38,346 nucleotides of DNA from Candidatus Rifleibacteriota bacterium (lineage in GTDB: Bacteria; Muiribacteriota; Ozemobacteria; Ozemobacterales; Ozemobacteraceae): the NCBI GenBank assembly GCA_051747585.1, contig JBNJGH010000025.1, positions 1-38,346 of the forward strand. Direction: 5' to 3'. This document shows, piece after piece, positions 10,227-38,341 of the stretch. Position numbers and translations under genes: made by a program. The notes under the pieces are model-generated. The model worked only from the letters and a program-made list of their open reading frames with translations. It did not search any database and was not told the DNA's origin. Numbering within the stretch: position 1 is the stretch's first letter; each line of letters starts with the position of its first letter.

Positions 10227-10255
10227 TTTATCCTCCACCTTCGTTAATGAGGCCT

Positions 10256-10534: not shown

Positions 10535-10565
10535 AATCAGCCTCACTCGATAACTGTTCGTTAAA

Positions 10566-11489: not shown

Positions 11490-11555
11490 AGTCTTCCGGT
11501 TGGCAATTAATAACCCGGTCGAGAATTTTACCTCCCGACTAAAAGGCGTCTGAAA

Positions 11556-11584
11556 ATCCTAGCACAGCCCATGAATACTGTCAA
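11556..11584 (-). promoter_or_regulatory. Sigma70-type promoter for the activator-ComFB-STAS-rpmE-thyX-pheA operon
   Basis: Minus strand TTGACA-17 nt-TAGGAT with an extended -10 TG, about 66 bp upstream of the ATG. Confidence 0.75.
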
Positions 11585-11593
11585 GAAAAGTAA

Positions 11594-15920: not shown

Positions 15921-17870
15921 ATGAATTTTGTTCGTAATCGCTTAGAATCTGTTTTAATAATTGCGGTGTCACTCCTCTTTTTGCTGTTAAACTGCAAAAT
16001 TTCGGCTGCAAACAAATTTAATTCCGAACGCTTCAAATGCCCTTTATGCAATATCGATTTTTCAGTATTTGCTGAAACTAAGTCTGATACAGACAGTGCC
16101 ATGGCGATTGACGGCCAACCCCTCTCATTCAAACCAGCGCCTCTGCCACAATGCCCTCTTTGCGGCGGTGTTTTTACCCGCAAAAATTATACTGAAAAAG
16201 AAATCAACGAACTAAAAAGAATCGTCTGGTCTAAAGCCTACCAAAAGACTGGTTCTGAAAGCAGTTTATGGAAAAGCGCCATTATTAAAGAGCGTATGTT
16301 TTATTCTGATTACGATCTTTTTGTTGCCTGGCATAAAGCTGCGCTGCAGGAAAATTCAGGAAGCAATAAACACAAACTTGCACTTGATAAAGCTGCTTTT
16401 CATCTTAAAAACTGGCTTATTCTTCAAAATGAAGCTGCAAGTAAAGAAACAGCCAAAAATTACCTCAAACTCGCTGATATTTTGCGGCAAGCAGAAAACT
16501 TCAATGAAGCACAAAAGCAATTAGAAAAAGTAAAAAACATTAATATCAATGAATTGCAACCTGTCATTCGCAAAGAACAACAGCTTATAAAAGACAAAAA
16601 TACCAGGCGTGTAGCCGCTCCTGATGGCAATCGCCTACATCAGGCAATTGCAGCGGGGAACAGAGAAGAAGTTAAATCTCTGCTAAAAAATCGAGAGCTG
16701 TTGAGTGAATCTGATTTACAGGGCAACACCCCTTTGTTGCTTGCGGTAAAGTTAAAAAAGCCGCAAATAGTTTCTTTATTGTTAAAAAATGGCGCATCAA
16801 CCGGCAGTACAGATATTGAATTGCATTCACCCCTGCATGAAGCAACGCAAAACAATGATTTAACAATGCTCAATACCCTTCTTAAAGCTAACCCGGTAAT
16901 TAACAGTAAAAACAGATCAGGGCAGACAGCTATACATGTTGCTGCCAAAAACTGCTACCCCGAAGCTTTTTCACTTTTATTAAGGCACAATGCCGACATC
17001 AACCTGACCGACTCTGCAGGCAACAGTGTTCTTCATCTGGTCTGCACAGGCACAGAAACTGCAAGAGTCAGCATTTGCAAAAAAATTCTTGAATTAAATC
17101 CGCAAATAAATTCACGCAATTTTTCTGATTACACGCCACTCCATATCGCTGCAATAAACGGCTCTAAAGAGCTGATAACGACACTTGTAAGAGCAGGTGC
17201 TGATATTGACTCCAGACTTCCTAATGGAAACACAGCACTTTTTTTCTGCAAAACAGACCTCATTCCTCATTTTCTAACTCTTGGCGCAAACCCCGAATTA
17301 AAAAACAATCAGGGTTTGACTCCATTTGATTATGCGCTGCTTAATGGCATAAAAAAGCGCATACATGCTTTCAGAAAGGTTCTTCAAAAGCAGAACAAAA
17401 TCAGCAGTACCGCCTCGGCCTCTTTAAAATCTTTACACAAAGCAATAAGAAACGGAAAAATCGATCTAGTTAATAAACTGGTAGGCCAAAATCCGGAAAT
17501 AGTTAATTACAAAGATATTAAACTTGGCGAGACTGCTTTGCACATAGCAGCTGAAGCAAATCAAACTGCAATCGCAAAGTTTTTGCTGAAAAATAACGCC
17601 AAAATCAATTGTTACAATCATTTCGCGCGAACACCTCTCCATTATACCGCCATGCAGGGCAATTTAAATCTGGTAAAAACACTTATTGAGGCGGGTGCAA
17701 ACCTCTTTGCAGTAGACTTAAGAGGCTCAACTCCTCTGCACGATGCGGCAACAAGTGGCGACATCGAAACCTATCAATATCTAATTAGAGCAGGAGCGGT
17801 CGACAGCACAAAGAACAATGCTGGCCGGTCTCCCAAAGACATATTTAATGAAAACAAAGAAGAAAATTAA
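15921..17870 (+). CDS. Exported ankyrin-repeat protein with an N-terminal DUF2225-like Zn-ribbon/TPR region
   Basis: Hydrophobic signal/anchor, CPLC...CPLC, YLKLADILRQ.ENFNEA TPR-like helix, and many G.TPLH/TALH ankyrin repeats. Confidence 0.88.
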   Translation: MNFVRNRLESVLIIAVSLLFLLLNCKISAANKFNSERFKCPLCNIDFSVFAETKSDTDSAMAIDGQPLSFKPAPLPQCPLCGGVFTRKNYTEKEINELKRIVWSKAYQKTGSESSLWKSAIIKERMFYSDYDLFVAWHKAALQENSGSNKHKLALDKAAFHLKNWLILQNEAASKETAKNYLKLADILRQAENFNEAQKQLEKVKNININELQPVIRKEQQLIKDKNTRRVAAPDGNRLHQAIAAGNREEVKSLLKNRELLSESDLQGNTPLLLAVKLKKPQIVSLLLKNGASTGSTDIELHSPLHEATQNNDLTMLNTLLKANPVINSKNRSGQTAIHVAAKNCYPEAFSLLLRHNADINLTDSAGNSVLHLVCTGTETARVSICKKILELNPQINSRNFSDYTPLHIAAINGSKELITTLVRAGADIDSRLPNGNTALFFCKTDLIPHFLTLGANPELKNNQGLTPFDYALLNGIKKRIHAFRKVLQKQNKISSTASASLKSLHKAIRNGKIDLVNKLVGQNPEIVNYKDIKLGETALHIAAEANQTAIAKFLLKNNAKINCYNHFARTPLHYTAMQGNLNLVKTLIEAGANLFAVDLRGSTPLHDAATSGDIETYQYLIRAGAVDSTKNNAGRSPKDIFNENKEEN

Positions 17871-17886
17871 ATAATAAAAAAATCTC

Positions 17887-17930
17887 ACCACCGAGATCAC
17901 AGAGTGCACCGAGGTGATTTTTTAATCTTT
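17887..17930. repeat. Solo copy of the CAC(A/C)GAG terminal repeat, inverted relative to 15848-15892
   Basis: ACCACCGAGATCACAGAGTGCACCGAGGTGATTTTTTAATCTTT matches the reverse complement of 15848-15892 with 7 mismatches and 1 gap. Confidence 0.75.
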
Positions 17931-17986
17931 ATTCTTAAACGAGTTGATAGTCGCTGACCGAAAATTGCTAAATAGCTAATTAAAGT

Positions 17987-18015
17987 TTGGTTAATAGAGG
18001 ATTTTCGAGTATAAT
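17987..18015 (+). promoter_or_regulatory. Putative sigma70 promoter of the DUF2760-Hsp70 operon
   Basis: TTGGTT-17 nt-TATAAT, 47 bp upstream of the ATG at 18063. Confidence 0.5.
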
Positions 18016-18062
18016 TTTCACTGCCTTAAAATGAAAATTAAAAATTAACTGCGAGGTCAATA

Positions 18063-19205
18063 ATGAAAAAAGCCACAGCTTTTTTATCTTTTATAGGATT
18101 TCTATTTATACCCATTATCTATTTCGTTAAATTTCATTCCAATCCAGAATTGTTACGGCCTTTACTGGAATGGCTTAAAACACTTATACCGGCAGCATAT
18201 CATTCAACCGCATTGATTGCCGGTGCGCTATTCTGGTTAACCGGTTTTATAACTTCGATTGCGGGAATGTTCGCCGGCAAAAAAATCGAAACTGAGCCCG
18301 AAGAAAACAAAACAGAACAAGTTGTGCGTGAACCGGAAAAAGCAGAAACCAAAGAAATAAAAGAAAACGAAGAAAACGAACAAAACGAAAAGATGGTTCC
18401 CGAATCTGAGCTGATCGAAAAAAACAAAGCCTTTGAGCATGCAGAAATGAAAATAACAACCCTTGAATCTGAAATAGAAAATTTCAAAGCCCAGCTCGAA
18501 AAATTTAAGGCTGTCGAAACCGAAAAGGTTGAAGTCGATGATTTAAAGAATGATTTGACTAACACTCAAAAAGCTTTAAAAGCAAGCGAGGAAAAAGAGA
18601 AAAAATTAGAACTCGAGCTTGAAGCGCTGGCTACAAAAATTAACACTTCTCAAGAAAACCTGGAGAAAACCCGCAAAGAAAAAGAAAAGGTCGCAGGCAA
18701 ATTAAAAACCGCTGAAAACCAGTTTAACGAAATGTCTGATAAGTATTCTGAATTAAAAGAAGAAAACGATAGATTGAACGAAGAGCTCAGAGCGGCCGAA
18801 GCCGATGCCAAAAGCGGCAAACACGGCATACCGCCGGCTGCCTACCAGATTCTTTACCTGTTCCAGAAAGAAGGGCGCTTCATTGACTTGATGATGGAAG
18901 ACATTTCAGAATTCGATGATGAAACTCTCGGAGGAGCAATCAGACCTATACACGAAGGCTGTCACAAAATTTTAAAAGAAAGACTTATTATTGAGCCTGT
19001 TTTAAATGAAGAAGAAGGCAGTGAAATAACAATTGAAGAAGCTGACCCTGAATCTATAAAGCTTTCAGGCAATGTTCCCGCAGAAGGACCCTACAAAGGC
19101 GAACTGGTTCATAGAGGGTGGCGACTTAAAGAATGCCATCTTCCCGAACTGGTAGACGGATGGACCGGCAATGTAGTGGCTCCGGCTGAAATAGAAATTA
19201 ACTAA
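18063..19205 (+). CDS. DUF2760 domain protein with N-terminal TM helices and a long coiled coil
   Basis: Two hydrophobic segments and an E/K-rich heptad region. C-terminal FQKEGRFIDLMMEDI, GGAIRPIHEGC, LSGNV..EGPYKGELVHRGW and VVAPAEIE are characteristic of DUF2760. Confidence 0.85.
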   Translation: MKKATAFLSFIGFLFIPIIYFVKFHSNPELLRPLLEWLKTLIPAAYHSTALIAGALFWLTGFITSIAGMFAGKKIETEPEENKTEQVVREPEKAETKEIKENEENEQNEKMVPESELIEKNKAFEHAEMKITTLESEIENFKAQLEKFKAVETEKVEVDDLKNDLTNTQKALKASEEKEKKLELELEALATKINTSQENLEKTRKEKEKVAGKLKTAENQFNEMSDKYSELKEENDRLNEELRAAEADAKSGKHGIPPAAYQILYLFQKEGRFIDLMMEDISEFDDETLGGAIRPIHEGCHKILKERLIIEPVLNEEEGSEITIEEADPESIKLSGNVPAEGPYKGELVHRGWRLKECHLPELVDGWTGNVVAPAEIEIN

Positions 19206-19216
19206 GGAGAAGAATC

Positions 19217-21010
19217 ATGGCAAAAGCAAAATACATAGTTGGCATAGATCTGGGAACAACAAATATAGTAGTTACCAGCGCCCTGATTTCTGATTCCGAA
19301 AAAGAAGAAAAGCCCGAAATCTCAATTTTCCCTATTTTACAGGAACAGGCTAAAGGCGCAGTTGAAAAGCTCGAAAAAATGCCTTCTTTTTTGTTTGAAA
19401 GGCTCAAAGAAAAACCCGTTCTGCCATGGGATGAAGACTCAAAGTTTATAATCGGGGATTACGCCAGAGAGCGCGGAGCAGAAGTACCCGACCGACTTAT
19501 TTCTTCTGCAAAATCCTGGTTATGCAATACAAGAGTTGACAGAACAAAGCCTATTCTTCCCTGGAACGCCCCCGAAGATAACGAAAAAATTTCACCTCTG
19601 CAAGCTATTGCAGATTTTTTAAACCATGTTAGAGAAGCATGGAACCAGGAATATCCCAAAGACAAGCTTGAGAAACAAAAAGTTATTGTTACCATTCCCG
19701 CTTCTTTTGACGCCGCAGCCAGAGATTTGACCTTAGAGGCTGCAAAAACAGCCGGACTAGACGAGGTTACCCTTCTTGAAGAACCCCAGTCAGCATTTTA
19801 TTCCTGGATCGCCCAGAGCGACAAGCCCTGGCGCAAACAGGTAAAAAAAGGTGATGTAGTTCTTGTAGTCGATGTTGGAGGCGGAACAACTGACTTCAGC
19901 CTGATCGAAATAAATGAAGAAGAAGGCGATCTAACCCTGGAAAGAGTCGCAGTAGGAAACCACATCCTTCTTGGCGGCGACAACATGGACCTGACACTAG
20001 CTTATATTGCCCGCAAAAAGCTCGAAGAGAAAAAGAAAAAGGTCACGCAATGGCAGACCTTGCAACTGAGTCATCAATGCCGCAAAGCCAAAGAAGCTCT
20101 GTTAAGCGACGACAGCAAAGACTCTGTTTCGGTGGTAGTTTCTGGCAGAGGCAGCAGTGTAATCGCCGGTTCACTCAAAACAACAATCGAACGCGATGAT
20201 ATCGAGAAAACCCTTGTCGAAGGTTTTTTTCCAGACTGCAATATGGAGGACAAGCCTGATGAAGACATGGGTTCGGGGGTTCGCGAATCCAATCTGATGT
20301 ATGCGCCGGATGCAGCAATTACCAAACATCTGGCTCATTTTTTATGTAGCCAACAAACGGAAAATAAAGATTATTCATACCCTCAGGCCATTCTTTTTAA
20401 TGGCGGGGTGTTTCGTTCAGATATTTTCAGAAATCGCCTGATCGAAGTAATAAACAGCTGGCTGAAAAACGAAGAAAAAGAAGAAGTAAAAGTTCTCGAA
20501 GGCATAGAACTCTCTCAAGCTGTTGCAAGGGGTGCCTCATATTTTGGCATCGCTCGTGAAGGCCAGGGAATACGCATCAGAGGCGGCGTATCACAATCTT
20601 ATTATCTTGGCATTGAATCGTCACTGCCTGCAGTTCCAGGCTTCAAACCACCGATGAAAGCTCTTTGCGTAGCACAGCAGGGCACAGAAGAAGGAACCAC
20701 CAGCGCTATAAAAGATCGCTCATTTGGTCTGGTAATAGGCAAAAAAGCAGAATTCAAATTTTTTAAATCCAATTGTCGACGCGAAGATGAGTTCGGCAGC
20801 TTGATCGAAGAAATGACCGAGGAATTTGAAGAAACCAGCTCACTCGAAATCGAGCTAGAAGCTTATGAAGGGCTTAAAGCCGGTGATTTAGTAGACGTTA
20901 CCCTGGAAGTAAGTGTTACCGAAATAGGAACCCTTGAAATCTATTGTATAGCGAAAGAAGGCGATCACCGCTGGAAACTCGAATTCAATGTCAGGGATGC
21001 TATTAACTGA
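19217..21010 (+). CDS. Atypical Hsp70-family ATPase (non-DnaK)
   Basis: GIDLGTT, SAKSWLC, TIPASFD, LLEEPQSAFY, DVGGGTTDFS, LGGDNMD, LFNGG. C-terminus lacks the canonical DnaK substrate-binding motifs. Confidence 0.9.
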   Translation: MAKAKYIVGIDLGTTNIVVTSALISDSEKEEKPEISIFPILQEQAKGAVEKLEKMPSFLFERLKEKPVLPWDEDSKFIIGDYARERGAEVPDRLISSAKSWLCNTRVDRTKPILPWNAPEDNEKISPLQAIADFLNHVREAWNQEYPKDKLEKQKVIVTIPASFDAAARDLTLEAAKTAGLDEVTLLEEPQSAFYSWIAQSDKPWRKQVKKGDVVLVVDVGGGTTDFSLIEINEEEGDLTLERVAVGNHILLGGDNMDLTLAYIARKKLEEKKKKVTQWQTLQLSHQCRKAKEALLSDDSKDSVSVVVSGRGSSVIAGSLKTTIERDDIEKTLVEGFFPDCNMEDKPDEDMGSGVRESNLMYAPDAAITKHLAHFLCSQQTENKDYSYPQAILFNGGVFRSDIFRNRLIEVINSWLKNEEKEEVKVLEGIELSQAVARGASYFGIAREGQGIRIRGGVSQSYYLGIESSLPAVPGFKPPMKALCVAQQGTEEGTTSAIKDRSFGLVIGKKAEFKFFKSNCRREDEFGSLIEEMTEEFEETSSLEIELEAYEGLKAGDLVDVTLEVSVTEIGTLEIYCIAKEGDHRWKLEFNVRDAIN

Positions 21011-23760
21011 TGGCAGAAAAATCATCCGGAACAGCAAGATTTATTATAGGCATTGATCTGGGCACAACCCAATGCTCGGTCTCTTATGTCGACCTTGAAG
21101 ACAGCAATCTAAAGATAAAGAATTTCAAAATTCTACAGCTTGTAGGTGAAGGACAGGTAGAAGAACTGCCCACTTTACCTGCAGTTATTTATCTGCCCGA
21201 TGAAAAGCAGGAATTTTCGCGACCCGACTGGATGGATGAAAAGCAAATAATTGGAAGTTACGCCAGGGAGCTTGGTTATGAAGTGCCCTCTCGCTTTGTG
21301 CACAGTAGTAAATCCTGGCTCTGTCACCCCAGAATAGATCGTCGGGCATCGATTTTGCCCTGGCAAAGCGAGGCCGTCAGCGAAAAAATTTCTCCGGTAC
21401 AGGCCGCCACCGACTTTCTTAATCACATTATTCTGGCCTGGAACCACGAAATGCTACCTCAAAACGACGCCTTTGCCTTTAAACGTCAGAAAATTATTGT
21501 AACTGTGCCGGCCTCGTTTGACCCCTCGGCACGGAACCTGACCCTTGAAGCAATAGAAAAAGCAGGAATAGAATCTGTCTCGCTGCTCGAAGAACCCCAG
21601 GCAGCTTTTTACGATTACCTCTATCGCAACCCCAGACAGATGGTTCATGACCTGCAGGCAGTAGACAACATTCTGGTGGTTGATATAGGCGGAGGAACAA
21701 CAGATTTCAGTCTTATAAAAATTGACTGGTCAGCCGATAAAAACCACCCCGAATTTTCTCGACTTGCAGTTGGCCCTCATCTGCTGATAGGTGGCGACAA
21801 CCTGGATCTTACTCTAGCCAGAAAAGCAGAAGCCGCGTTTAAGCACAAAGGCAGAAAACTGGTTGCCAAACAATGGCTTTCAGTGCTCAGCCAAAGTCAC
21901 TTAATTAAAGAGCAGATTCTTTCTAATCAATTAACCGGCAAGGCTACCTTTTCTATAACCGGTGCAGGCAGTAAAATACTCTCGGGGGCAGCCTCGATAA
22001 AAATTGCAAGTTCCGAAATCAACAAGATGCTTATCGATGGATTCTTTCCTCTGGTTGAAGCTGATGAAAGACCAGACGAAGACAACAGCCTCGGAATTTC
22101 TGAAGCAGGGCTGCCATTCACTCGCGATCCGGCCATAACAAGGCATCTGGCCGCATTTCTTCATGAAAATAACATTATTCCAGATGCTGTTTTGTTTAAT
22201 GGCGGCACCATGAAAGCGGATTGCCTCAGAGATAGAATCTACGAAGTTCTTTCTATCTGGAAAGGGCGAGAGCCAAAAATTCTCGAAAATCCGCACCCCA
22301 CGCTTGCCGTATCGGCAGGTGCAGCATATTACGGCATGGTTTCTCTCGGCCTGGGGCAGAGAATCCAAAGCGGAAACCCTGTGTCTATCTATTTAGGCAT
22401 TGGTACATCCAAATCATCAACAGCCGCAAAGCACGTTCCTCAACAGCTCATGTGCGTATTACCCAAAGGCTGCGAAACAGAAAAAGAATACAGGGTTGCC
22501 GACAAAACCTTTGGCATCGATCTGAGCCGTGATTCAGCCTTTTATCTTTACTATACTCCCAATCCTCCCAAAGCAGAACAACTGGGCCGGGTAATTAGAT
22601 TCAATTCAAAACGCTATCGGCCTTTGCCTTCATGCAGACTTAAAGCCAAAACCGGTAAAGGCGAAAAACAGGTAGAATTGCGAGTAAAGTTACGAGAAAC
22701 AGGCTATATGCAGATTTTCTGCGACGAAAAATCCGGCTCTTTTTCGCAGGAACTACGTTTCGATATTACCGAAGGCGAACAAAACAGTCAGCCAAAAGCA
22801 AACAATAAACGGCGCATTCCATTCACGGCCCGACAGCTGCAAAGTCTTAAAAAAACTTTGCAGTCAGCATTCGATGGCGAGCTTGAATATAATCGCCTCT
22901 TTAAAGAAATAGAAGACACCTTGGGATCACGCCGTTCGGAGTGGGATACAGAAATGCTGCGCAAACTTTTTGATTTTTTTATTGAATATGAGCAGGAATT
23001 CACCCGAAACCAGCCGGCACACACTCAATGGTTCCGCCTATTGGGCTTCTGCTTAAGACCTGGCTTTGGTGCCCGTGATGACGTCAAAAGAGTCGATCGC
23101 ATCTGGCAGATGCATGATCTGGAATTTACTTATAAAAATCCCGAGTTCTGGTCTGACTGGTGGGTTATGTGGAAAAGAACAGCCCCAGGTTTAAGCCTTG
23201 AACGACAGAATATATTGAAAAATATTATAGAGCCTCTTTTATTTCCTCCCAAAAAGCAGGCAAAAGAAATGCGGCCGATAAGCCAACATGAAAGAAACCA
23301 GATCTGGCGTTTGCTCGGCAACCTTGAGCGTATTGCCGTAGAAGAAAAAGAGCGACTTGGCTGGTGGGCGCTAAAAGCCCCGCCCAGTTATGGCAAAGAC
23401 CAGCTGGCGCTGCATGCTGTTGGCAGATTGGGCGCTCGCTTACTTGCCTATGCCCCAGACACTGCTTTAGTACCCCAGTCAACCGCAAATGACTGGGTAG
23501 CGCAACTTTTAAGAAAATCCTGGCCGGGCAATTCTTACCTGGACTGGGCCTTGAAAGAAATAGGGCGCAAAACCGGAGATAAGCTGGTACAAATCGATGA
23601 TGTTTTACGAAAAAAAATCGTCGATTTATTTAAAAAGAAAAAGCGTAAGAAAAACTTCATTGCGCCACTGGTTAAAACCGCAAAATTAAGCGACAAAGAC
23701 CTTTCCGAATTCACCGGCGACAGCCTCCCGTCTGGCTTTGTCTGGGTAAAAGAAGCTTAA
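21010..23760 (+). CDS. Atypical Hsp70-family ATPase with a C-terminal DUF3731-like helical domain
   Basis: Same nucleotide-binding motifs as the upstream paralog, plus ~330 extra aa containing WFRLLGFCLRPGFG..DD..R, WWVMWKR.APGL and GRLGAR. Coupled to the upstream gene by a TGATG overlap. Confidence 0.88.
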   Translation: MAEKSSGTARFIIGIDLGTTQCSVSYVDLEDSNLKIKNFKILQLVGEGQVEELPTLPAVIYLPDEKQEFSRPDWMDEKQIIGSYARELGYEVPSRFVHSSKSWLCHPRIDRRASILPWQSEAVSEKISPVQAATDFLNHIILAWNHEMLPQNDAFAFKRQKIIVTVPASFDPSARNLTLEAIEKAGIESVSLLEEPQAAFYDYLYRNPRQMVHDLQAVDNILVVDIGGGTTDFSLIKIDWSADKNHPEFSRLAVGPHLLIGGDNLDLTLARKAEAAFKHKGRKLVAKQWLSVLSQSHLIKEQILSNQLTGKATFSITGAGSKILSGAASIKIASSEINKMLIDGFFPLVEADERPDEDNSLGISEAGLPFTRDPAITRHLAAFLHENNIIPDAVLFNGGTMKADCLRDRIYEVLSIWKGREPKILENPHPTLAVSAGAAYYGMVSLGLGQRIQSGNPVSIYLGIGTSKSSTAAKHVPQQLMCVLPKGCETEKEYRVADKTFGIDLSRDSAFYLYYTPNPPKAEQLGRVIRFNSKRYRPLPSCRLKAKTGKGEKQVELRVKLRETGYMQIFCDEKSGSFSQELRFDITEGEQNSQPKANNKRRIPFTARQLQSLKKTLQSAFDGELEYNRLFKEIEDTLGSRRSEWDTEMLRKLFDFFIEYEQEFTRNQPAHTQWFRLLGFCLRPGFGARDDVKRVDRIWQMHDLEFTYKNPEFWSDWWVMWKRTAPGLSLERQNILKNIIEPLLFPPKKQAKEMRPISQHERNQIWRLLGNLERIAVEEKERLGWWALKAPPSYGKDQLALHAVGRLGARLLAYAPDTALVPQSTANDWVAQLLRKSWPGNSYLDWALKEIGRKTGDKLVQIDDVLRKKIVDLFKKKKRKKNFIAPLVKTAKLSDKDLSEFTGDSLPSGFVWVKEA

Positions 23761-27664: not shown

Positions 27665-28330
27665 TTACAAATCCTGTATTTCTGTAGGAATACGAAAAGA
27701 GGTAGTTTTTTTAACCTTTAAAGAGCGCTTATGCGGGTAGCTTAAAATAAACTCAAGCTCAAGAACCGACATGGATTCCTGTTTATATTCTCGCTTAGAA
27801 GCATTTATTGCTTCCAGATTTTCAAGCAGCTTTTGCTTCAACACAGTATTACCATCTCTGGTCAGTTCGGCCCATAGTTCCAGGCGCTGAACACTGCCTC
27901 GAACAAAGGCCTTAACATTAGTTTCGGTATAGGTATTGGCTGCAGCATCTTTTTTATGGATTGTAAATTTCCATAATGTGTAATCCCCACCAGCACCTGT
28001 GTAACCGGATAAAAGATTGCCACTACCCGAACTTACGATATACAAGGATGAAGTAGCAACATCCGGTGGAGTTATTAAAACACCTTTTGCGTCTGTATTT
28101 AAAGAAACAATTTTATGGGTGGCTGCCGAAAAATACTTTTGCCAGAAAATTTCATTTAATCTTTGTCGATCCATTGCATTCTGTTTCCATGCAGTCACCT
28201 GCTGAGAGCTGTTCACCCAGCTTACGAATTTGGTTACCGATAATATAACCAGACTCATAACGGAGACAGTTACAAGAAGTTCGACAAGGGTAAAACCTAT
28301 TTTTGCTTTTAATTCTGATTTTTTATTCAT
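27665..28330 (-). CDS. Type IV minor pilin / pseudopilin (PilW/GspJ-like)
   Basis: Class III signal KIG|FTLVELLV with Glu5. Confidence 0.9.
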   Translation of the reverse strand: MNKKSELKAKIGFTLVELLVTVSVMSLVILSVTKFVSWVNSSQQVTAWKQNAMDRQRLNEIFWQKYFSAATHKIVSLNTDAKGVLITPPDVATSSLYIVSSGSGNLLSGYTGAGGDYTLWKFTIHKKDAAANTYTETNVKAFVRGSVQRLELWAELTRDGNTVLKQKLLENLEAINASKREYKQESMSVLELEFILSYPHKRSLKVKKTTSFRIPTEIQDL

Positions 28331-28847
28331 ATTTCTTCATCTGAATAGTTACATTCATGGTAACTTCGTTTTTCACATCAAATGATTTTAAAGTTTCTGA
28401 GGTTGCTTGTGCCGTAACTCTGATGTAATCCTCGGTGTAACCAACGCTTACAGCTCCCGCCGCCTTTCGCAAAGCTAATCTTTCAATGCTTGTAACTTCG
28501 GCAATTCTATCAGGGCTCATAGTTGCAAACTCATTATCAAGAATCTGCAAATTCAGATCTTCAAGAAATTTATCGTAGAGTTCTGCCGTTCTGCTCGCAG
28601 CCGGAACATCATCTCTATATTTAAAAGCCTTGTAAAGCTCTGTGGGATTTGTCCTGATTTTAAGCTTTGCGGCTTCTATTGTTGACAGACAAAGAAGTTC
28701 CAGTTGCGTTCTTTCAATGGTAATTTTTTTCTCATAGCCTTGATCTACGGATCGATTTAACAAAAAAACGGCAAAAATCATTGAAGTAGCTATTACAGCA
28801 AGCACTATAACCATGACAATTCCACTTTTTCTGCGCTTAATTCTCAT
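28323..28847 (-). CDS. Type IV minor pilin (PilX/GspK-like)
   Basis: KRRKSG|IVMVIVLAVI, a class III signal without Glu5. Confidence 0.75.
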   Translation of the reverse strand: MRIKRRKSGIVMVIVLAVIATSMIFAVFLLNRSVDQGYEKKITIERTQLELLCLSTIEAAKLKIRTNPTELYKAFKYRDDVPAASRTAELYDKFLEDLNLQILDNEFATMSPDRIAEVTSIERLALRKAAGAVSVGYTEDYIRVTAQATSETLKSFDVKNEVTMNVTIQMKKYE

Positions 28848-29362
28848 CCCAGCTCCGCCTTATAAACGAACAAACTTATTATTTCTGTTTTGCCGGACAT
28901 CTTTGATTTCCAGCGCACTTCCATTTCAAGTCTGACAAATCTTTTGTACATACTGAAATTTGCAGACTCACCCGGAGCGGTCATTGTGCTAAAAAAGAAA
29001 TCGTCTGGACCGGTTGTCCTGGTAACATACTTACTGTGCAATCTATAAGAAAAAGTGTTGCCGTTAATGACTTCGCTTGAAGGAATATGTATTTGGTTAT
29101 CCGTACTTGAACCGTATGTTTTATCCAGCTCGACCGGAATCCCCAATGGGACATCCCGAAAAGGAAGTCCCATAAGAGATCTCAGGTATCCTGAACTACT
29201 GTGCATTGCCGCAAGAAAATCGGCATTTGTCTGCGTGTATGTGGTTCCACGACCAAACAGGCCAATAATAGGAATGACGGCAAAAGCGAATATCACTATT
29301 GCCATCATTACCTCTACCAGTGAAAGGCCGGTTTTTCTGCAGGACTGCAAACAAGAGGTCAT
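28844..29362 (-). CDS. Type IV minor pilin (PilV/GspI-like)
   Basis: RKTG|LSLVEVMMAI with Glu5, and a C-terminal V.W strand. Confidence 0.88.
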   Translation of the reverse strand: MTSCLQSCRKTGLSLVEVMMAIVIFAFAVIPIIGLFGRGTTYTQTNADFLAAMHSSSGYLRSLMGLPFRDVPLGIPVELDKTYGSSTDNQIHIPSSEVINGNTFSYRLHSKYVTRTTGPDDFFFSTMTAPGESANFSMYKRFVRLEMEVRWKSKMSGKTEIISLFVYKAELG

Positions 29363-32300
29363 TTATTTTATATTTGATCTTTCTGCTTCGGTATTAGATT
29401 CAAGAACACGTATCTGATACTTACTTGGAATAATTGGAAAGTCAAGAAACAATTCCCGGGTATTGCCCTCGAGATCTTTAACCTCGAGATAGAAGGTATT
29501 GTCGCCGCTTGATTTACTACCCGCACTGTTCTTAAGTCCTGTATCTACATCAGCATTACCAACACGGAATATATAAGACAGGGGCGTGTTTTCGTCATGA
29601 TTCAGCAGACGCAGGGGCGCAACATCATTTCGCGAACCTACCGGAATATCTTCAAGCTCGTTATTGTAAGGCACTTCATATTCGTCGATCGTATCTTCGA
29701 CAAATTTATAATAGATTTTGCTGAAATTCTTGTCGGCAACCACCTTACCATCTGGCGCATAAGTATCATCCTGTCTGAAGAGAATGTTGTCTCTTACAGA
29801 AATATCGAAGACAATAACTTCATCTTCTGCGAATCCTGGTGCATCAGGATTTGCAAGATTAAATTTTGCTTTAATATCGTTATCAGAAAGCTCAATTCTT
29901 AAATCATCATATTTTGAAGCATTGCTTTCAGTCACATCTTTATTTGCTGAATTATCCAGAGATTGATTGCGATCATAACTGTAGCCTGCCACTTCAAAGG
30001 CACTACTAAAGTTGCCACCGACAAATTTCTGATCTGAAGTTTTGTAAGGATGACACCAGGAACTGAGCAAACCGGTTTTAGAGGCCTTAACCCGTGCTTT
30101 AACGGCATCAGACGCCCAGTCTAATCGTCCAAACGGCTGACTGGTCGGGCCAAGCGGTGTGTCGTCTTTAATATCATCCAGATCATCCAGGGTTCCATCA
30201 TCCGGAACCGGGCGATATTTGGCTGAAGCAAGGCGCAAATCAAGATTAGGTCGTTTGTTATCGACAACTTTAAAATACCCCTCTTTACGGGTATAGTTAC
30301 GCGAACCATCTTCAACTTCGATTATATACTTGATTTTACCGGCTATATAAGGCGAAATTCTATGCCTTATGGTCATTTCCTGATTACCTTTTGTTCCAAG
30401 GTCATCAGAAGTTGCCGGCTTATGTAATGCTATTTTATGACCATCTACACGCTCTATGTTAAAGTTGGCAACATCGCCGTCTATGTCGCCATCTGGCGCG
30501 GACAACAACTTGTTAGCAACTGTTGGCAGCAGCATTGGGAACTGATAACCGCCTTTAATCGTGGTAAACTGTTTGGTTCCCATGTTGATCTGCTGCATCC
30601 AGAATCTTGGATACCAGTAACGACGGGTGCCACCATTTTTCAAACCATCGTTTGGTCCGTGGCCGGGATGATTGTCTGTTATTCTGAACTTATAAAGAGT
30701 TTCATCACCACTGTTAGCATGAATAACATTGCTGGCAGCAGCCTGAAATCCTCCTGTGCCATTGAACTCTTCTATAAAGAGCGAAGGCGGAGTAACATCG
30801 ACCGAGAATGATTTTCTTTTCCAGGTGTAGGTCATTGGTGTGTCTACATAGCTAATTTTACCATCACTGTCATTAACCGAGAATGTTCGTTTGGTACAGC
30901 TAAGCACTATTTCGGTTTCGTAATTCTGATCTGGGAAAGTCGGTTCAGGAAAGCCATAGGAAAACTCAGATCTGAATGTCGCAACTTTAAGCTCCTGATA
31001 TCTTCCGCCAATTTTTACAAGATAGGTGTCCATCTGAGTTTCATTAATATTTGAAGTACCCTCAGCACCAAGGCTGGGCGCATAATCAAACTCGCGCACC
31101 TTACTTCTGGTTCCATTTACTAATTCTCGATAAACATTAATTTTCACATTTACCGGAGATTCAAGCAGAACACCGCTGTAAGCCTCCAGGTGATCTTGAT
31201 TCAGAGCATTCGCAGTGTTCAAATCAGAGACCTCATTAACCTTTCTCGAGAACTTGATTTGAAGCTCGAGGTCGAAGTCATAATTAGTGGAAGCTTCTGC
31301 ATTTACCAGGTCAAAATTGTTATCTATGTATGTGTTTCCGCTGCCGGTATTATTGATTTCTTTCCAATCATTGTCAGGTAAGGGCATTTTCCCGCTCAGG
31401 TCATAGGCTCTGGTATTGCTGTATGCTTTAAAAGAAGTCGGAAAGTCGCGTTTTCGCAAAGCGGTAGCCTCTGCACCCCATTGTGGTGCATAAGTAGCAG
31501 TATCGCCCGGACCTTCGTAAGCAAGAATCGGATCTACAAAATCTGCAGGATCATGGTCATAGACCTTAACATTATGAGTCAAAACTTCGGTTTTGGGAAT
31601 GTCGTTAACTGCATAGTAAATGATAATACCTGCATAGTCAGTAACCGGAGACACGATTCGTTCTGTATATTTTACAGTATGAATAATCGTATATTTTCCA
31701 GCCTGAAGGAACTCATAGGTAAAGCTGCTGCCTGTTCCGGTGCCGCCGGGCACGGAAGGTGAAACAGCCCAGGTCTGCTCCCAGGTTCCCGGTTTGATGA
31801 TAACATGTTTTGACCCCGGTGCTCTCCAGGTGTTGGGAATATCTTCAGGGACAGAATCAGGACCAGTTATAGTTGTTGGTACATATTTGGTTTCTGTCGG
31901 TGGATAGGGAGGTGTTGGTGGGTCACCCGGGTCATAATTGCCACCGGATCTTGTGAATTTTCGACCATAAGAAAATTGATTTCCAACCGGGTCATAAGCC
32001 CATAGAGTAGGATTCAAATATTTATAGTTATAAGATTCTTTGATTGTATGGCTACTTCCCGTGGCATAGGTTGCAAATTTAGCGCCTGTAGTTACTTTGA
32101 ATTTTCGATCCAGGTCGGTAGCAACCGCATTTAAAGCAGCATAACCGAAGCCCGTTCTATAGACAGTGGAGAGCAGAAAGCCATCACGAGCCTTAACTTC
32201 GCTCCAACGCTTCATGTCGTTCTTGTCAAAATAACCGTTACCATCGGCGTCACCCCTGATGAAAAGCTCGCCCATTACACCAGAGTTGATCGATTCAAGT

Positions 32301-34291
32301 CTACCAAGGCCCCATGGGTCGCCAATGGCATGTAAACAAGCATTTGTATTATGAACTTTGTTGTAGAAACTACCGCGTGGAAAAACCTCGACATATTTGG
32401 TTTTCAATCGACCTATCAAAGTTCCGTCGGGATAATTCATGGTAGTCTTTTTAAAGAGTTGAGCCAGCGAAGGTGTTGCCCTGGGACCAAGATTAGTAAG
32501 GAAATCTGGACCACAAACCCCCGGATCTGTTGTGTAGTCATAAGCAATTGAATGGAAGGGGCGGGCATAATACTTTGATGAAAATTCAGAAGAGCCCCAC
32601 ACATAAAACCACCCCTTATAAGCATTACCCGACCAGTAAAGGTGTATAGGTGCTTTCCCATCCGGTTCGACAACTTTTACCGGGCCAACGAATGCATAGT
32701 AGCTATTTGCAACTGAATTCAAAAGCCTCGTGTTAGATGCATTAATTTCAATATCTGTTCTTAATCTGGCATTGTCGGCAAATTTAGCTCTTATTTGATT
32801 TCCAAGATCTTCGAAAGCCTCCGGGAAGCCGTTGAAAGCGAAATTCCCAACCCAGGTAGTGTCCGCATTGTCTATTTTGCCATCTTCGTTTACGTCTGCC
32901 TCAGGAAAAGCGGCATCAAAAAATTTCTTATCCTGGTTATCAACTTTATCATCATGATTAACATCAAAAATTTTGGTAAAAACGTATTTTAAATCTCCAG
33001 CCAGAGGTTTGCCGCTGGAACTGAAAACAGGCTCACCACTTGAGTTGGTTCTAGCTTCACGAATAAAGCCACGGGCAGTTAAAACCGTTGCAGGGTGAAG
33101 AGGAACATCGAACCCTGCGGGAACGACTCTTTGCCCATCGACGATAGCCGGAGTAGTTACCAGATATAATTTTGCCTGTTTCGGGTCTTCCAGGGCCATG
33201 TAAACCGGGACATCCACCTGGCCGAATCCAAGGTTGGAAAGCATTTTAACAATGTCTTTCATGTGTATCCAGCCATCGAATATTTTGTCGTATTCAATAT
33301 AATATTTCTCTTCATTGCGGTTCAGGCTATGTCTGCCCCAATTGAATCTTAAGCTGACTTTTGTATCTTCAAGACTGGGGTGCCAGACATTTGTTGCATG
33401 CGCATTCCATTTCGCATATGTGGGCATTCTGGGATGAACGTAAGCCTTTTGACTCTGTGAGAGGGTAAGACGGGGTAGATTGATATACCAGCCATAAAAA
33501 TATTTTCTCATTTGCTCGAGAATAACAGTCTTGGACCAATGAAAATCTTCAAGACCTATCTGATAATTATTAATATTCTCTCCCTGAGCGCTCGCACTTA
33601 TTCTTGTGTTTTCGCTTGGAGGATCGTTAGGCCAGTGATAGTCATACACAGGATACTGCCAGGTTTTGTTTCCCCTGGTTCTTTTTACATAAATATTTGG
33701 AGTCCAATAATAGACCTCATAATAGTTATAACAATCAACGACGTAGACATTATAGCTGTAGCATCTGGTGTGAGTCTCTTTATCTTCACCCGAACCTGTA
33801 GTCCATGAATAACAACGCGTTCTGCTCTCCCAATGACCACGATGAACTCTACTATACCAGTAATTTACCAGCGACCAGTCATACCAGTCGTTATAGTGCC
33901 AGGCTGTCAGATAGTTATCTATATCCCAGGTCAGCTTTAAATTATGTCCCGGAGTAATCCTTAAACCAGGACCGGTAAGCAGCTCATAAGAGCCAAGTCT
34001 GTTTGGACCTATATACATAAAAGGTTTTTCTTCGTAAAAGGCGGGCGTAAAGGGAACCAGCTCCATTTTATCTCTATCAAGTTGAAAGTTGGTAGTTAAA
34101 TTCGAGGTAAATCTTCGATGTGGAGTATATGGATAGCTGTCAGGAGCTCTCTCGCGCCGGTATAAATAGCTTGGTTTAGGGTAATGATTAGCCGGATAAC
34201 GATAACAAGCCTCAAGGATATTTGTACCGCTGATTAAAATAAAAAAAATAAATGATAAAAAAAGAATCCTTTTTAACCCAACCTTAGCCAT
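29363..34291 (-). CDS. Large secreted multidomain protein (putative pilus-associated adhesin)
   Basis: RBS AGGAGG and a Sec signal. Tyr/Trp-rich N-terminus, three DxN/DxDG calcium-binding-like loops, a PKD-like segment, and Ig-like modules (DVTPP, DNKRP). Its stop abuts the start of the PilV-like gene. Confidence 0.8.
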   Translation of the reverse strand: MAKVGLKRILFLSFIFFILISGTNILEACYRYPANHYPKPSYLYRRERAPDSYPYTPHRRFTSNLTTNFQLDRDKMELVPFTPAFYEEKPFMYIGPNRLGSYELLTGPGLRITPGHNLKLTWDIDNYLTAWHYNDWYDWSLVNYWYSRVHRGHWESRTRCYSWTTGSGEDKETHTRCYSYNVYVVDCYNYYEVYYWTPNIYVKRTRGNKTWQYPVYDYHWPNDPPSENTRISASAQGENINNYQIGLEDFHWSKTVILEQMRKYFYGWYINLPRLTLSQSQKAYVHPRMPTYAKWNAHATNVWHPSLEDTKVSLRFNWGRHSLNRNEEKYYIEYDKIFDGWIHMKDIVKMLSNLGFGQVDVPVYMALEDPKQAKLYLVTTPAIVDGQRVVPAGFDVPLHPATVLTARGFIREARTNSSGEPVFSSSGKPLAGDLKYVFTKIFDVNHDDKVDNQDKKFFDAAFPEADVNEDGKIDNADTTWVGNFAFNGFPEAFEDLGNQIRAKFADNARLRTDIEINASNTRLLNSVANSYYAFVGPVKVVEPDGKAPIHLYWSGNAYKGWFYVWGSSEFSSKYYARPFHSIAYDYTTDPGVCGPDFLTNLGPRATPSLAQLFKKTTMNYPDGTLIGRLKTKYVEVFPRGSFYNKVHNTNACLHAIGDPWGLGRLESINSGVMGELFIRGDADGNGYFDKNDMKRWSEVKARDGFLLSTVYRTGFGYAALNAVATDLDRKFKVTTGAKFATYATGSSHTIKESYNYKYLNPTLWAYDPVGNQFSYGRKFTRSGGNYDPGDPPTPPYPPTETKYVPTTITGPDSVPEDIPNTWRAPGSKHVIIKPGTWEQTWAVSPSVPGGTGTGSSFTYEFLQAGKYTIIHTVKYTERIVSPVTDYAGIIIYYAVNDIPKTEVLTHNVKVYDHDPADFVDPILAYEGPGDTATYAPQWGAEATALRKRDFPTSFKAYSNTRAYDLSGKMPLPDNDWKEINNTGSGNTYIDNNFDLVNAEASTNYDFDLELQIKFSRKVNEVSDLNTANALNQDHLEAYSGVLLESPVNVKINVYRELVNGTRSKVREFDYAPSLGAEGTSNINETQMDTYLVKIGGRYQELKVATFRSEFSYGFPEPTFPDQNYETEIVLSCTKRTFSVNDSDGKISYVDTPMTYTWKRKSFSVDVTPPSLFIEEFNGTGGFQAAASNVIHANSGDETLYKFRITDNHPGHGPNDGLKNGGTRRYWYPRFWMQQINMGTKQFTTIKGGYQFPMLLPTVANKLLSAPDGDIDGDVANFNIERVDGHKIALHKPATSDDLGTKGNQEMTIRHRISPYIAGKIKYIIEVEDGSRNYTRKEGYFKVVDNKRPNLDLRLASAKYRPVPDDGTLDDLDDIKDDTPLGPTSQPFGRLDWASDAVKARVKASKTGLLSSWCHPYKTSDQKFVGGNFSSAFEVAGYSYDRNQSLDNSANKDVTESNASKYDDLRIELSDNDIKAKFNLANPDAPGFAEDEVIVFDISVRDNILFRQDDTYAPDGKVVADKNFSKIYYKFVEDTIDEYEVPYNNELEDIPVGSRNDVAPLRLLNHDENTPLSYIFRVGNADVDTGLKNSAGSKSSGDNTFYLEVKDLEGNTRELFLDFPIIPSKYQIRVLESNTEAERSNIK

Positions 34292-34565: not shown

Positions 34566-34783
34566 AGTTGTTATCCATTTAGTAATATTAGCAAGTTTTA
34601 AGACATTTTTGATTTTTTGTTATGTACTAAAACTTAGGATATCAAAGATTGCTTCGTCGCTACGCTCCTCGCAATGACAATTTGGGGCTGTCATTGCAAG
34701 CAAAGCGCTTGTGCTGAGCGGAGTCGAAGTAAAGCAATCTAAATGTCTTAAAACGTTTTCAACAAACATAATGGAGAATAACT
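34566..34783. mobile_element. MITE/REPIN-like element, copy 2 (inverted relative to 10-228)
   Basis: Aligns along its full length to the reverse complement of 10-228. Termini AGTTGTTATCCATT / AATGGAGAATAACT. Confidence 0.8.
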
Positions 34784-34843: not shown

Positions 34844-37816
34844 TTAGATGCTGAAAGACGAGGAGTTGGAGTAGCTCGAAGGGCTGCCTCCGCCGCTGCT
34901 GGGGCTGCCACCGCTGCTGGGATAACTGCTTCCGCCGCCACCGCCGGTGGAGCCGGAGCCGGTGCTGCTGGAAGAACTGCCGGGAGAATTTGAACCGGTG
35001 TTATTCGTGCTGTCGCCGCTGCCTCCGCCCGGGCTGCCTGAGCTTGAAGAGCCGCCATCACTGCCGTTTGTGTCTGAGCTGCTACCGTCGCCGCCGCCGC
35101 TGGCTGATCCACCACCGGGGCCGCCAGCGTCACCGGAAGTATTATTTCCGCTTCCGCTACCGGGGCCGCCGCCACTTTCGCTTGTTCCGCCTGCGCCTTC
35201 AGGATCGCTTCCGGCGTCACCGTCTGCCGTGTCTTCTCCGGCACCGCCGCCTGCGCCGGTTCCGGGGTCGTCATCACTGAACTCGGAATCAGGCTTGTTA
35301 TGAGCGACAAGCCCATCGGCAACATAGGTTGGATAAGGCTCTACCTTGGCGAGATTGTAAACTTTCTGCCGCGAAACTTTGGTAAAAATACCAGCAACCT
35401 TCAGCCAGCCCTTGGAAATATGTCTAATTTGCTGACCAACTCTCAAGGTTTTAACTTTCATACCATGATCAGTCAGGGTTGCTTCAGGATCGATAGAAGC
35501 CCAGCCTTTTCCAGTATAAAGCGGATGCTCATTGGTAAGATTCAACTCATCGCCATTTTCGAATTCAATTTTGGTTAAATGGTTGCGAACCGGGCTTTCA
35601 AGAGCCATAACTCGACCTTCTACAAATCTTTGCCTGTTTGTATCGTAAGACTTAACCCGATCACCAATAATCACATCTTCAATGTTTTTAAACGAACCGT
35701 CAGCCATTTCTATACGAGTTCCTGCAGCAAAACAGCAGGAAGTACATTCGTGGTCGGTTGAGCCACTGTCATTTGTCGGAGGATCCGGGATTTCTTCGAA
35801 TTCCCACTTGCCCTGGGTAGGCGGTATGCCGGGAGTTCCGGGGGAACCGTCCCATTCCCCGCCATCTTCGTAAGAAATGGGCGGATGGGCAGTGTTGAAA
35901 GGAGCTTCAGGCTCGACAATTTCGATGCCATCGGTAAAGTCTCCATCGCCATCGGAGCCGGTTTCGTCAGTTGAAATCGGATAAGTTCGTTCGCCACCGT
36001 TGGGATCCCCGCCTGAAGGTTCGTATGTTCTGCTTGAACCAGTAGGATATGGAATTTCGACTTCTTCTCCGCCTTCGTATTCCCAGGCAGGCGGTCCGGG
36101 GGGAACGCCGGGAGTGCCTGGTATCCAAACTGACCGGTAGCCCTCGGGCGGCGCAGGAGCCGGACCAGGTTCATCGGGTAAAGGCCAGTCAATATTTGCC
36201 AGGTATCTTTCTTCTTCTTTTGGAAAATCGGCACTTTCAGAAGAATAATATTTGCGGAAAAAATCAACCAGATCCTGCATCTGTATGGCAAAATTGTTTA
36301 CCGGATCGACATAAGAATATGATTTTTTAATTTTCTGTATTTGAATCTTGATTGGGTATGGTTCTGCATCGTCTTTGACTATGTAAATGCTGTTATCATC
36401 TTCACGAATAGTTGAATTTTCTCCGAAGCCGCCTTCATTTTCCTGAACCTCAAATGCTCTTGTGGCATCCGGCAACCAGGCAAGCTGCTCCACAAACTGA
36501 CTGACAGGCAGGTTCAGCTTTGGAGAAAGAAGACTTAAAAACTGGCCTTTGTACATTTTAGGCTCATAAAATCTGGAATCCATTCTGGGTTTTGAATTAA
36601 GCGTCCATTGAATTCCATGCTTGGAAAGAAAATCTACCATTTCCTGAGGGGCACTTGTTTTAACATGATCCAGCTTCAAATAAGCCTCTTTTTTTGCTTC
36701 ATCTTTCTTTTCCCAGTTTGTTCCGGGAGGGACAAAATTCTGCAGAAGATAAGCAAGAAAAAGGTTTTCTGCTCTCTCGCGAGTCATATTAGTAATTTCT
36801 GGAGGAAACAGTTCAAGCAATTCGCTATCGCTTAATTTTTCGGGTAAATTCTCGTTTTTAATCTCTTTTGCTTTGTCTTCAAGTTTGTTATGAGCAACGA
36901 AGTTAAGCAGGAAGGCATCTGAAGTTTGTGCCACAAAGCTTGAAACTGCATATCGATCAGAGAGATTGGAAATATCAAAATCAGGGAAAAGTCCAAGATC
37001 AATTTTGGTAATTCTTACCATTTTTTTAAGTGTTTTTAAATTTGCAGGGCTGCCATGACCTGGATTTTTTTCAATGGAAACAAGCTCATCGCCGGATTTA
37101 CAATTATCTCCACCGCTCATGGCAAGAGACTTAATCTTACCGTGCGAGGCAGCATAAACGGGAATTCCTGTTGCAGAGCCATCAGCTCTATCGAGTTCTG
37201 CAACCACGGTATTTAAATCTACTTCTTGTCCCGGGTAGACCTTGTAATTTTTCAGAATAAATTCTGCTTCTTCTCCGCTGGTAGGACGCGGAACTTCCAT
37301 TCTAACTTCATAGGGGTTATAAGAAGGATCAGAATAGATAATTCCATGAGTTGAATCACTGTTAAGAGCAGGCTCAGGGGAAATAATAAACCTGCCATAA
37401 ACCAGACATTTTTTTCCGCCATATTCTGCCAGTGAAAAAACATCGACGTGATGCAGCAACCACAATTGCTGCATTCCAAAAATATCTGAAACCGGTGTTT
37501 TATTGGCTACATCCTGGCAGGCAATGGTAAGCGAGCCTTCTCCCCCCGGAGGAGAGATGCTTTCCACAACGCCGGTTGGACGGCCCTTACTTCCATCTTT
37601 GCTAAATGGTTGCTGATACCATCTATTTTTGCGCAATCTGCCTTCTACGTAATCAATCCCCGAAAGGGCTATTATTTCAGCACTTTGATGACCGATCTGT
37701 TGTTTAACCTGTCTCATTTCGCCGCGAGAATATTTCAATAAAGCCATAACCATAGTAAAAAACGCGGCAAGAATTATAAGAACCAGAAATATACTCGATC
37801 CTTTTTTTAGTTTCAT
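34844..37816 (-). CDS. PilX/GspK-like minor pilin fused to a lipoyl-like domain, Pro-rich linker, Hint (intein-like) domain and Gly/Ser-rich tail
   Basis: KLKKG|SSIFLVLIIL class III-like signal and the A..IA.SG pilin helix. Hint from CFAAGTRI..ADG..KNIEDV..GD.V through TNEHP and VYNL to VAHN (aa 695-840, nt 35734-35297). Confidence 0.88.
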   Translation of the reverse strand: MKLKKGSSIFLVLIILAAFFTMVMALLKYSRGEMRQVKQQIGHQSAEIIALSGIDYVEGRLRKNRWYQQPFSKDGSKGRPTGVVESISPPGGEGSLTIACQDVANKTPVSDIFGMQQLWLLHHVDVFSLAEYGGKKCLVYGRFIISPEPALNSDSTHGIIYSDPSYNPYEVRMEVPRPTSGEEAEFILKNYKVYPGQEVDLNTVVAELDRADGSATGIPVYAASHGKIKSLAMSGGDNCKSGDELVSIEKNPGHGSPANLKTLKKMVRITKIDLGLFPDFDISNLSDRYAVSSFVAQTSDAFLLNFVAHNKLEDKAKEIKNENLPEKLSDSELLELFPPEITNMTRERAENLFLAYLLQNFVPPGTNWEKKDEAKKEAYLKLDHVKTSAPQEMVDFLSKHGIQWTLNSKPRMDSRFYEPKMYKGQFLSLLSPKLNLPVSQFVEQLAWLPDATRAFEVQENEGGFGENSTIREDDNSIYIVKDDAEPYPIKIQIQKIKKSYSYVDPVNNFAIQMQDLVDFFRKYYSSESADFPKEEERYLANIDWPLPDEPGPAPAPPEGYRSVWIPGTPGVPPGPPAWEYEGGEEVEIPYPTGSSRTYEPSGGDPNGGERTYPISTDETGSDGDGDFTDGIEIVEPEAPFNTAHPPISYEDGGEWDGSPGTPGIPPTQGKWEFEEIPDPPTNDSGSTDHECTSCCFAAGTRIEMADGSFKNIEDVIIGDRVKSYDTNRQRFVEGRVMALESPVRNHLTKIEFENGDELNLTNEHPLYTGKGWASIDPEATLTDHGMKVKTLRVGQQIRHISKGWLKVAGIFTKVSRQKVYNLAKVEPYPTYVADGLVAHNKPDSEFSDDDPGTGAGGGAGEDTADGDAGSDPEGAGGTSESGGGPGSGSGNNTSGDAGGPGGGSASGGGDGSSSDTNGSDGGSSSSGSPGGGSGDSTNNTGSNSPGSSSSSTGSGSTGGGGGSSYPSSGGSPSSGGGSPSSYSNSSSFSI

Positions 37817-37828
37817 CTTGGTACCCCT

Positions 37829-38341
37829 TTAAATCAAGTTAGCCAGGTTGACCATTCCGGAAAACTCAAGATCTTTATTTCCCTTGGCCGTCAAACAGAT
37901 CTTATATTCAATCAGGTTGGATTCTGTGCGTCTTACCCGGAAGGATTTGACGTTACGAGATATTGATCTGCCGTTAACCACTTTTCCATTATGAATATTA
38001 TCGTAGTTAATCAAAACCAGCCTGTTTTTGTCGTTCACATAAAAGATAAATATCTGATTCAGGGAATCCCTGAATATTACCGAGTTTTTCCAACTATGTT
38101 TGGATGAAGAATCAGGATAAATTACTTCTGTAGCAAGTTTTAGCGAGCTGTTAACTGAATAGCTCACTTTTCGGACATCATGATAGACATCAAGCCTGTT
38201 CATGGTATTTACTGATTTTCTTGAATAGGTAAATACCGGCATCAATATGAGCAACAAAAGAGAAAGCAAAGCAATTGCCACCAGTAGTTCTATAATAGTA
38301 AATCCACGAATATTTTTCATGAGTAAGGCCTTACTTTCCAA
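37829..38341 (-). CDS. Type IV minor pilin / pseudopilin (PilW/GspJ-like)
   Basis: NIRG|FTIIELLVAI with Glu5. The real start may be the ATG at 38320. The operon probably continues beyond the window. Confidence 0.88.
   Translation of the reverse strand: MESKALLMKNIRGFTIIELLVAIALLSLLLLILMPVFTYSRKSVNTMNRLDVYHDVRKVSYSVNSSLKLATEVIYPDSSSKHSWKNSVIFRDSLNQIFIFYVNDKNRLVLINYDNIHNGKVVNGRSISRNVKSFRVRRTESNLIEYKICLTAKGNKDLEFSGMVNLANLI

Follow-up and report, generated by a model that had tools for sequence, protein, structure and literature searches.

From its sequence, a 990-amino acid protein encoded by a Candidatus Rifleibacteriota bacterium (GCA_051747585.1) appears to be a modular tip pilin that houses a type A BIL domain of a subgroup marked by lysine at the +1 position, a combination that is real, conserved and apparently undescribed. 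The gene for this pilin-Hint protein (P0001; ORF 37816-34844, minus strand) lies on contig JBNJGH010000025.1, within the 38,346-nt stretch of DNA that we analysed and refer to as the window. At a probability of roughly 0.45, our main reading is that the Hint domain would excise itself and re-join the arm that precedes it, at Cys694, to Lys841 of the tail that follows. The features that bear on this reading are listed by window position.

34844..37816, minus strand: whole gene for the pilin-Hint protein P0001 (990-aa ORF)
37829..38341, minus strand: upstream prepilin with Glu5, 170 aa, in the PilW/GspJ position of the cassette (N_methyl 30.8 bits)
37337..37816, minus strand: aa 1-160, class III-type leader, long helix (6-63) and beta-sheet with a GspK/ComZ-like pilin fold (model, VIA, G6 conservation)
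37067..37309, minus strand: aa 170-250, biotin/lipoyl-fold (barrel-sandwich hybrid) insert with no acceptor lysine (Pfam, VIA)
36182..37033, minus strand: aa 262-545, conserved strand (263-272) and conserved domain of no named family (model)
35747..36181, minus strand: aa 546-690, Pro/Gly-rich arm (family alignment)
35735..35746, minus strand: aa 691-694, CxxC ending at the Hint -1 position (C691 and C694 invariant, 24/24)
35297..35734, minus strand: aa 695-840, Hint domain of BIL type A with Cys1, TxxH, VYN and His-Asn (HMM, motifs)
35294..35296, minus strand: Lys841, the +1 residue and sole lysine of the 150-aa tail (K in 22/24; tail counts)
34847..35296, minus strand: aa 841-990, Gly/Ser-rich tail with a conserved C-terminal motif (length and end conserved)

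The fusion of pilin and Hint is not an assembly artefact, since a public contig from a separate run spans 35048-37569, most of the gene, with ~94% identity and zero gaps; this contig, together with Hint-family Pfam marks in 17 of 26 homologues, indicates that the fusion is real. All homologues with a named source come from Ca. Rifleibacteriota or Riflebacteria, and aa 695-840 of P0001 constitute the sole Hint domain detected in the source genome. RNA runs X3 and X4 covered three short pieces of the gene, too little to show expression, and a search of the ESM Atlas with the whole protein gave no usable match. Just 3' of the gene lies a palindromic intergenic repeat (34631-34770) with 158 BLAST matches in the genome.

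The pilin, its cassette and its insert

The N-terminus of the protein reads KLKKG followed by SSIFL, with the leader boundary between G6 and S7, Leu at +5 and no Glu5, as in class III leaders of the PilX/GspK kind, and G6 is invariant in 27 of 27 rows. When a model of aa 1-162 (pLDDT 85.8) was compared with 48,161 chains by VIA, the top eight were all pilins or pseudopilins at moderate Z values of 6.1-8.4 (GspK 8.1, ComZ 8.1, XcpX 6.4; best unrelated chain 6.1), while Foldseek with the same residues returned nothing at E<=0.001. N_methyl and PilX_N gave no match to the 990-aa protein at E<=0.01, and the GspK profile NF037980 matched aa 5-65 weakly (E 0.0044), its 16.6 bits standing far below the cut-off of 130. 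The pilin call therefore rests on fold and context, by which the protein is of the PilX/GspK class, outside these HMM families.

The context is a cassette of three prepilins in Ca. Rifleibacteriota, of which the pilin-Hint gene is the third, following PilV/GspI-like and PilW/GspJ-like prepilins as expected of the PilX/GspK class. In the window, the second prepilin (37829-38341) exceeds the N_methyl cut-off (30.8 vs 21.2 bits) and ends 12 bases ahead of the start of the pilin-Hint gene; the first cassette gene would fall past the contig end. In 13 of 13 orthologue loci (L031-L043) the gene is immediately preceded by a homologue of the upstream prepilin, and 10 of these loci also show the first, PilV/GspI-like prepilin. 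The remaining neighbours differ among these loci, which share no conserved downstream gene. An earlier note on this DNA had proposed a PilX/GspK-type prepilin without Glu5, directly downstream of another prepilin gene, and both proposals hold, the former by the SSIFL start, the fold and the cassette and the latter by the N_methyl match; among the profiles that it named, Hint passes whereas PT-HINT, PilX_N and N_methyl do not.

The tip complex of type IV filaments has been reported to be capped by a subunit without Glu5 (PMC10191384), and large insertions are reported in GspK and ComZ (PMC7248040). By analogy, a tip-capping location is predicted for the 990-aa minor pilin. The tip subunits GspK, XcpX, PilX and ComZ resemble it in the absence of Glu5, in their third place in a three-prepilin cassette and in a pilin fold with a large insertion (3ci0_K: Z 8.1, rmsd 2.4, 85 aligned; 6qvi: Z 8.1, rmsd 3.0, 91 aligned), and we group them with modular pilins such as S. 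sanguinis PilB and PilC as the closest pilin systems. Unlike in these systems, the insert here has a lipoyl fold and the chain runs on into arm, Hint and tail; unlike in GspK-type subunits, the sequence match to the GspK model is weak. Complex prediction for the three cassette proteins of a relative (G002) gave 0.74 vs 0.69 for the control, a difference to which we give no weight.

The insert (aa 170-250) adopts the barrel-sandwich hybrid fold, with a VIA match to 2d5d at Z 12.8 (rmsd 1.2, 70 aligned), Pfam Biotin_lipoyl in 17 of 44 family members at E<=0.05, and only biotin/lipoyl-domain matches when Foldseek was run with aa 1-545. The hairpin turn that holds the acceptor lysine of biotin and lipoyl carriers is replaced by a variable loop with a 3-residue insertion and has no such lysine. 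This region is best read as a structural insert, at the site where GspK and ComZ carry theirs. Beyond it, strand 263-272 aligns with the pilin strands, the VIA alignments to GspK and ComZ spanning aa 35-275, and the domain at aa 262-545 is conserved and confidently modelled as part of the longer chain; it had no usable match in the ESM Atlas. The Pro/Gly-rich arm is found both with and without a Hint. A Cys-rich arm insert, mostly with a Cys-Cys end, occurs in the Hint-less g12-type orthologues P0011-P0013, P0016 and P0017.

Other filament genes were also observed. The source genome (G000, 4.1 Mb) holds 8 secretin, 24 T2SSE-family ATPase and one prepilin peptidase matches, a large expansion of type IV filament systems, and its contig C26 carries two tandem paralogous three-prepilin cassettes (9890-11605 and 16993-18708; L044) whose third genes (~600 aa) are without long arm, Hint or tail. 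In the window, a gene at 29363-34291 (minus strand) encodes a 1642-aa protein that has a signal peptide, matches no Pfam or NCBIfam model and shows EF-hand/dockerin-like motifs by eye. The gene is followed by three prepilin-like genes (27665-29362), and its product is a candidate tip adhesin of a second pilin cluster. Neither this gene nor its prepilins lie beside the pilin-Hint gene in the 13 relative loci, and we therefore keep them apart from the pilin-Hint system. A DUF2760 gene and two Hsp70-like genes, the second with DUF3731, occupy 18063-23760 on the plus strand.

The Hint domain and its conserved junctions

The Hint domain begins at Cys695 (CFAAGT), contains TNEHP at 761-765 and VYN at 819-821, and ends at His839-Asn840, directly followed by Lys841. 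It scores above threshold for Pfam Hint (33.3 bits, cut-off 29.7, covering profile positions 10-93 of 213), AXH (48.9, cut-off 33) and the intein N-terminal model TIGR01445 (32.3, cut-off 24.5), and its length of 146 aa leaves no space for an endonuclease. Each motif that the earlier note had named (Cys1, TNEHP, VYN, His-Asn and the +1 Lys) is where it had placed it, and its description of an intact, compact Hint without an endonuclease insert is upheld by the length and by the Hint and AXH matches. The lipoyl-like insert, the CxxC before Cys1 and the Hint-less orthologues were absent from that account.

The nearest solved domain is the type A C. thermocellum BIL, CthBIL4 (PDB 2lwy, E 9.8e-21), with which the domain shares a compact Hint, Cys1, block B TxxH, a location in a variable region of an exported host, here between arm and tail with Hint-less orthologues in existence, and a lack of Cys, Ser or Thr at +1 (K 22, R 1, G 1). 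The C-terminal His-Asn by which type A is defined (PMC4031507) is present in 24 of 24 Hint-bearing members. Unlike other type A BILs, this one has a pilin host, a conserved +1 Lys and a CxxC before Cys1; the BIL reviews consulted name no conserved +1 residue. A near-equal match is Tetrahymena BUBL BIL2 (PDB 6y75, 6tmm; E 1.2e-19), the exteins of which are eukaryotic and ubiquitin-like. The pretoxin HINT domains of polymorphic toxins (MafB; UmbC umbrella toxin, PDB 8w20, E 2.3e-19) are related and likewise belong to exported proteins; unlike them, P0001 has no toxin domain after the Hint, a sub-threshold PT-HINT score (16.8 vs 27.7) and no conserved downstream gene. With class 1 inteins and the Hint of Hedgehog, the domain has the fold family, Cys1 and block B in common. 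We rejected a canonical intein since Lys841 stands where class 1 requires a Cys, Ser or Thr nucleophile, and there is no endonuclease; unlike in Hedgehog, His-Asn is present and a Gly/Ser tail takes the place of the sterol-recognition region.

Across the 24 Hint-bearing members, Cys-4, Cys-1, Cys1, Thr761, His764, Asn821, His839 and Asn840 are invariant, which makes processing likely, and Hint identity (0.58) is like that of the pilin core (0.61), which together with the invariant residues indicates that both junctions are under selection. On this conservation, processing at one junction or more is very probable. Since inteins are known to be gated by disulfides formed at their active-site cysteines, the CxxC is a candidate switch; gating of the reaction by its redox state or by metal binding is speculative. 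As a candidate oxidase for the CxxC we looked for DsbB, of which the 93.6% complete genome gave no match.

The +1 residue is Lys in 22 of the 24, the Arg and the Gly belonging to one two-member subclade (P0020, P0010), and in 14 of 24 it is the only lysine of the tail. The earlier note had under-read this position, which is strongly conserved and so more than the absence of a nucleophile. For a wider census we used a profile of 16 domains that ends at Asn, leaving +1 unscored, and that matches 68,737 representatives at E<=0.001, with 24,660 hits at E<=1e-10; the best 150 representatives were counted. These held 437 domains, and the 376 that reached the end of the profile and closed with HN, HQ or HD (61 were excluded) had 268 Lys, 38 Cys/Ser/Thr, 19 Ala and 12 Arg at +1, against a Lys background of 3-5%. 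Three caveats apply to this count: every one of the 16 seeds itself carries +1 Lys, the ranking puts tandem arrays ahead, and domains of shared descent are not independent. With a looser domain cut-off on the same best 150 of 68,737, Lys occurs in 126 of 126 domains of one Tim44-like cluster, the largest host cluster, and in 142 of 264 outside it; at least one +1 Lys occurs in 60 of 78 host clusters among these best 150. A control query with a toxin-type Hint gave Lys at 8 of 21 counted domains, of 36 found; among the 30 outside domains nearest to the family, the residue is Lys in 20 and Arg in 5. Riflebacterial Tim44-like exported proteins (L045, L046, L047, L078) carry at least three tandem Hints joined HN/K-G...C.

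A Hint is present in 24 of 45 family rows. The 21 rows without it include three outgroup paralogues and one short, possibly truncated protein, and at least 17 are full-length. Presence and absence switch three to four times on the pilin-domain tree, while the 24 Hints form one group against the 25 nearest outside domains (SH-aLRT 98, quick tree), with subgroups resembling those of the pilin tree. The simplest reading of these trees would be one insertion with later losses.

Possible outcomes: re-joining, cleavage and others

In the mechanism that we propose, prepilin peptidase would cut after Gly6, and the subunit, together with the two prepilins encoded upstream, would initiate a type IV filament. 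Cys695 would form the thioester with Cys694, which would be captured either by the side-chain amine of Lys841, giving an isopeptide bond, or by the new N-terminal amine of Lys841 after Asn840 cyclises. The Hint would then depart, and the tip would keep a continuous arm and tail, as in Hint-less relatives. Both routes have reported precedents: in type A BILs, the amine released when Asn cyclises can serve for ligation (PMC4031507, PMC5874633), and splicing by BIL2 is reported to form an isopeptide bond with the side chain of a Lys (PMC8616854), which may or may not be the +1 residue of BIL2, a position that the PDB alignments do not show. Since both junctions, the +1 lysine and the tail end are all conserved, we grade excision with re-joining above cleavage only.

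The tail bears most directly on this choice. It is 150-154 aa long in 24 of 24 Hint-bearing members and rich in Gly and Ser (63% in P0001; about 44-78% across the 24), with no Pfam domain. Of 34 distinct termini, 33 finish in a hydrophobic residue or Cys, against a 5% background, and 30 have Tyr or Arg among the last 10 residues. The tail end is conserved whether a Hint precedes it or not, a point in favour of excision with re-joining rather than shedding. Once the Hint is deleted in silico, 172-177 aa remain beyond the last arm motif (a motif not found in three rows), near the 192-207 aa of four longer Hint-less forms; the g8 and g12 Hint-less forms have only 74-76 aa and so do not represent precise excision. 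The earlier interpretation thus stands in part: a PilX/GspK-class pilin with an intact Hint is supported, whereas shedding of a C-terminal cargo is not, the tail being of low complexity. Toxin release was likewise rejected for want of a cargo domain after the Hint. In Kingella, C-terminal peptides are reported to dock other tip proteins onto PilX (PMC13711793).

A strong rival, though less probable than re-joining, is that the Hint only cleaves, cutting one or both junctions and shedding itself and the tail so that the pilin ends at Cys694, with a basic +1 residue merely speeding Asn cyclisation or steadying the fold. Cleavage is the usual behaviour of type A BILs, and the mostly cleaved products of the BIL domains studied (PMC4031507, PMC7664689) count against re-joining. 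The subclade with Arg or Gly at +1 keeps all catalytic residues, which counts against re-joining through lysine, and the 5 Arg among the 30 outside domains nearest to the family are consistent with a requirement for charge instead of an amine. There are also relatives that end HNK-stop, one residue past the Hint, where ligation would restore nothing; large proteins with a terminal Hint followed only by K, KK or IK and a stop were seen at L027, L028, L048, L067 and L079. Against cleavage alone, the tail holds no cargo domain to release, its length and end motif are conserved with the motif still attached in Hint-less orthologues, and Arg takes the +1 position in just 12 of 376 domains of the wide census (best 150 of 68,737).

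Ligation in trans, an idea of the earlier note in which the arm thioester would react with an amine on a separate protein, an adjacent subunit or a target surface and so fix the tip covalently, we regard as improbable. The predicted tip position and the long arm would suit it, and BIL2 is reported to conjugate the ubiquitin-like ubl4 to a separate Ras GTPase (PMC8616854); however, the sequence after the Hint holds no acceptor-binding domain, the junction itself offers an intramolecular lysine, and with at least 17 full-length rows lacking the Hint this cannot be the family's core function. Least probable is that the Hint is a neutral or non-catalytic passenger, tolerated in a flexible linker and useless to the pilus: the pilin tree shows three to four losses or gains of it, the linker around it is of low complexity, and many exported proteins of unrelated kinds carry such a domain, yet the catalytic residues of the Hint and the flanking CxxC stay invariant across genera at ~41-46% pilin identity, and the Hints form one group with no endonuclease to spread them.

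Wider occurrence and implications

Excision with re-joining in this pilin may be one instance of a broader chemistry, namely a widespread His-Asn/Lys Hint subclass whose +1 lysine supplies its side-chain amine for the splicing of exported proteins, with gating by the CxxC here and an ability to act in trans; taken as a whole, this proposition is doubtful. The subunits of type IV pili are joined by non-covalent contacts, and our literature searches gave no self-processing type IV pilus subunit. Were the proposition true, the pilus tip would gain an ATP-free, enzyme-free, CxxC-gated isopeptide bond, and in trans pili could be bonded to neighbours or targets. If lysine is the nucleophile, proteins would be spliced here by a route outside the known classes of intein, one that might also serve as a tool for ligation. 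The family also makes testable an old question, the role of BIL domains in their native exported hosts, and offers its own controls in a single Hint, one tail lysine, natural Arg and Gly variants and natural Hint-less alleles.

In the searchable literature we found no description of pilin-Hint fusions, in keeping with the earlier note, which knew of no characterised case, and none of a Lys+1 Hint subclass; the texts or supplements of the primary BIL papers may list such hosts. The pilin-Hint protein is one case of a recurring pattern assembled from parts of known kinds, and there are pilin-Hint fusions outside its family as well. P0153 and P0079 are prepilin-like by eye and match no prepilin profile. 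P0159 passes the prepilin model TIGR02532 (29.2 vs 16.3) and has two Hints, and P0173 passes TadE and carries two Hints with +1 Lys.
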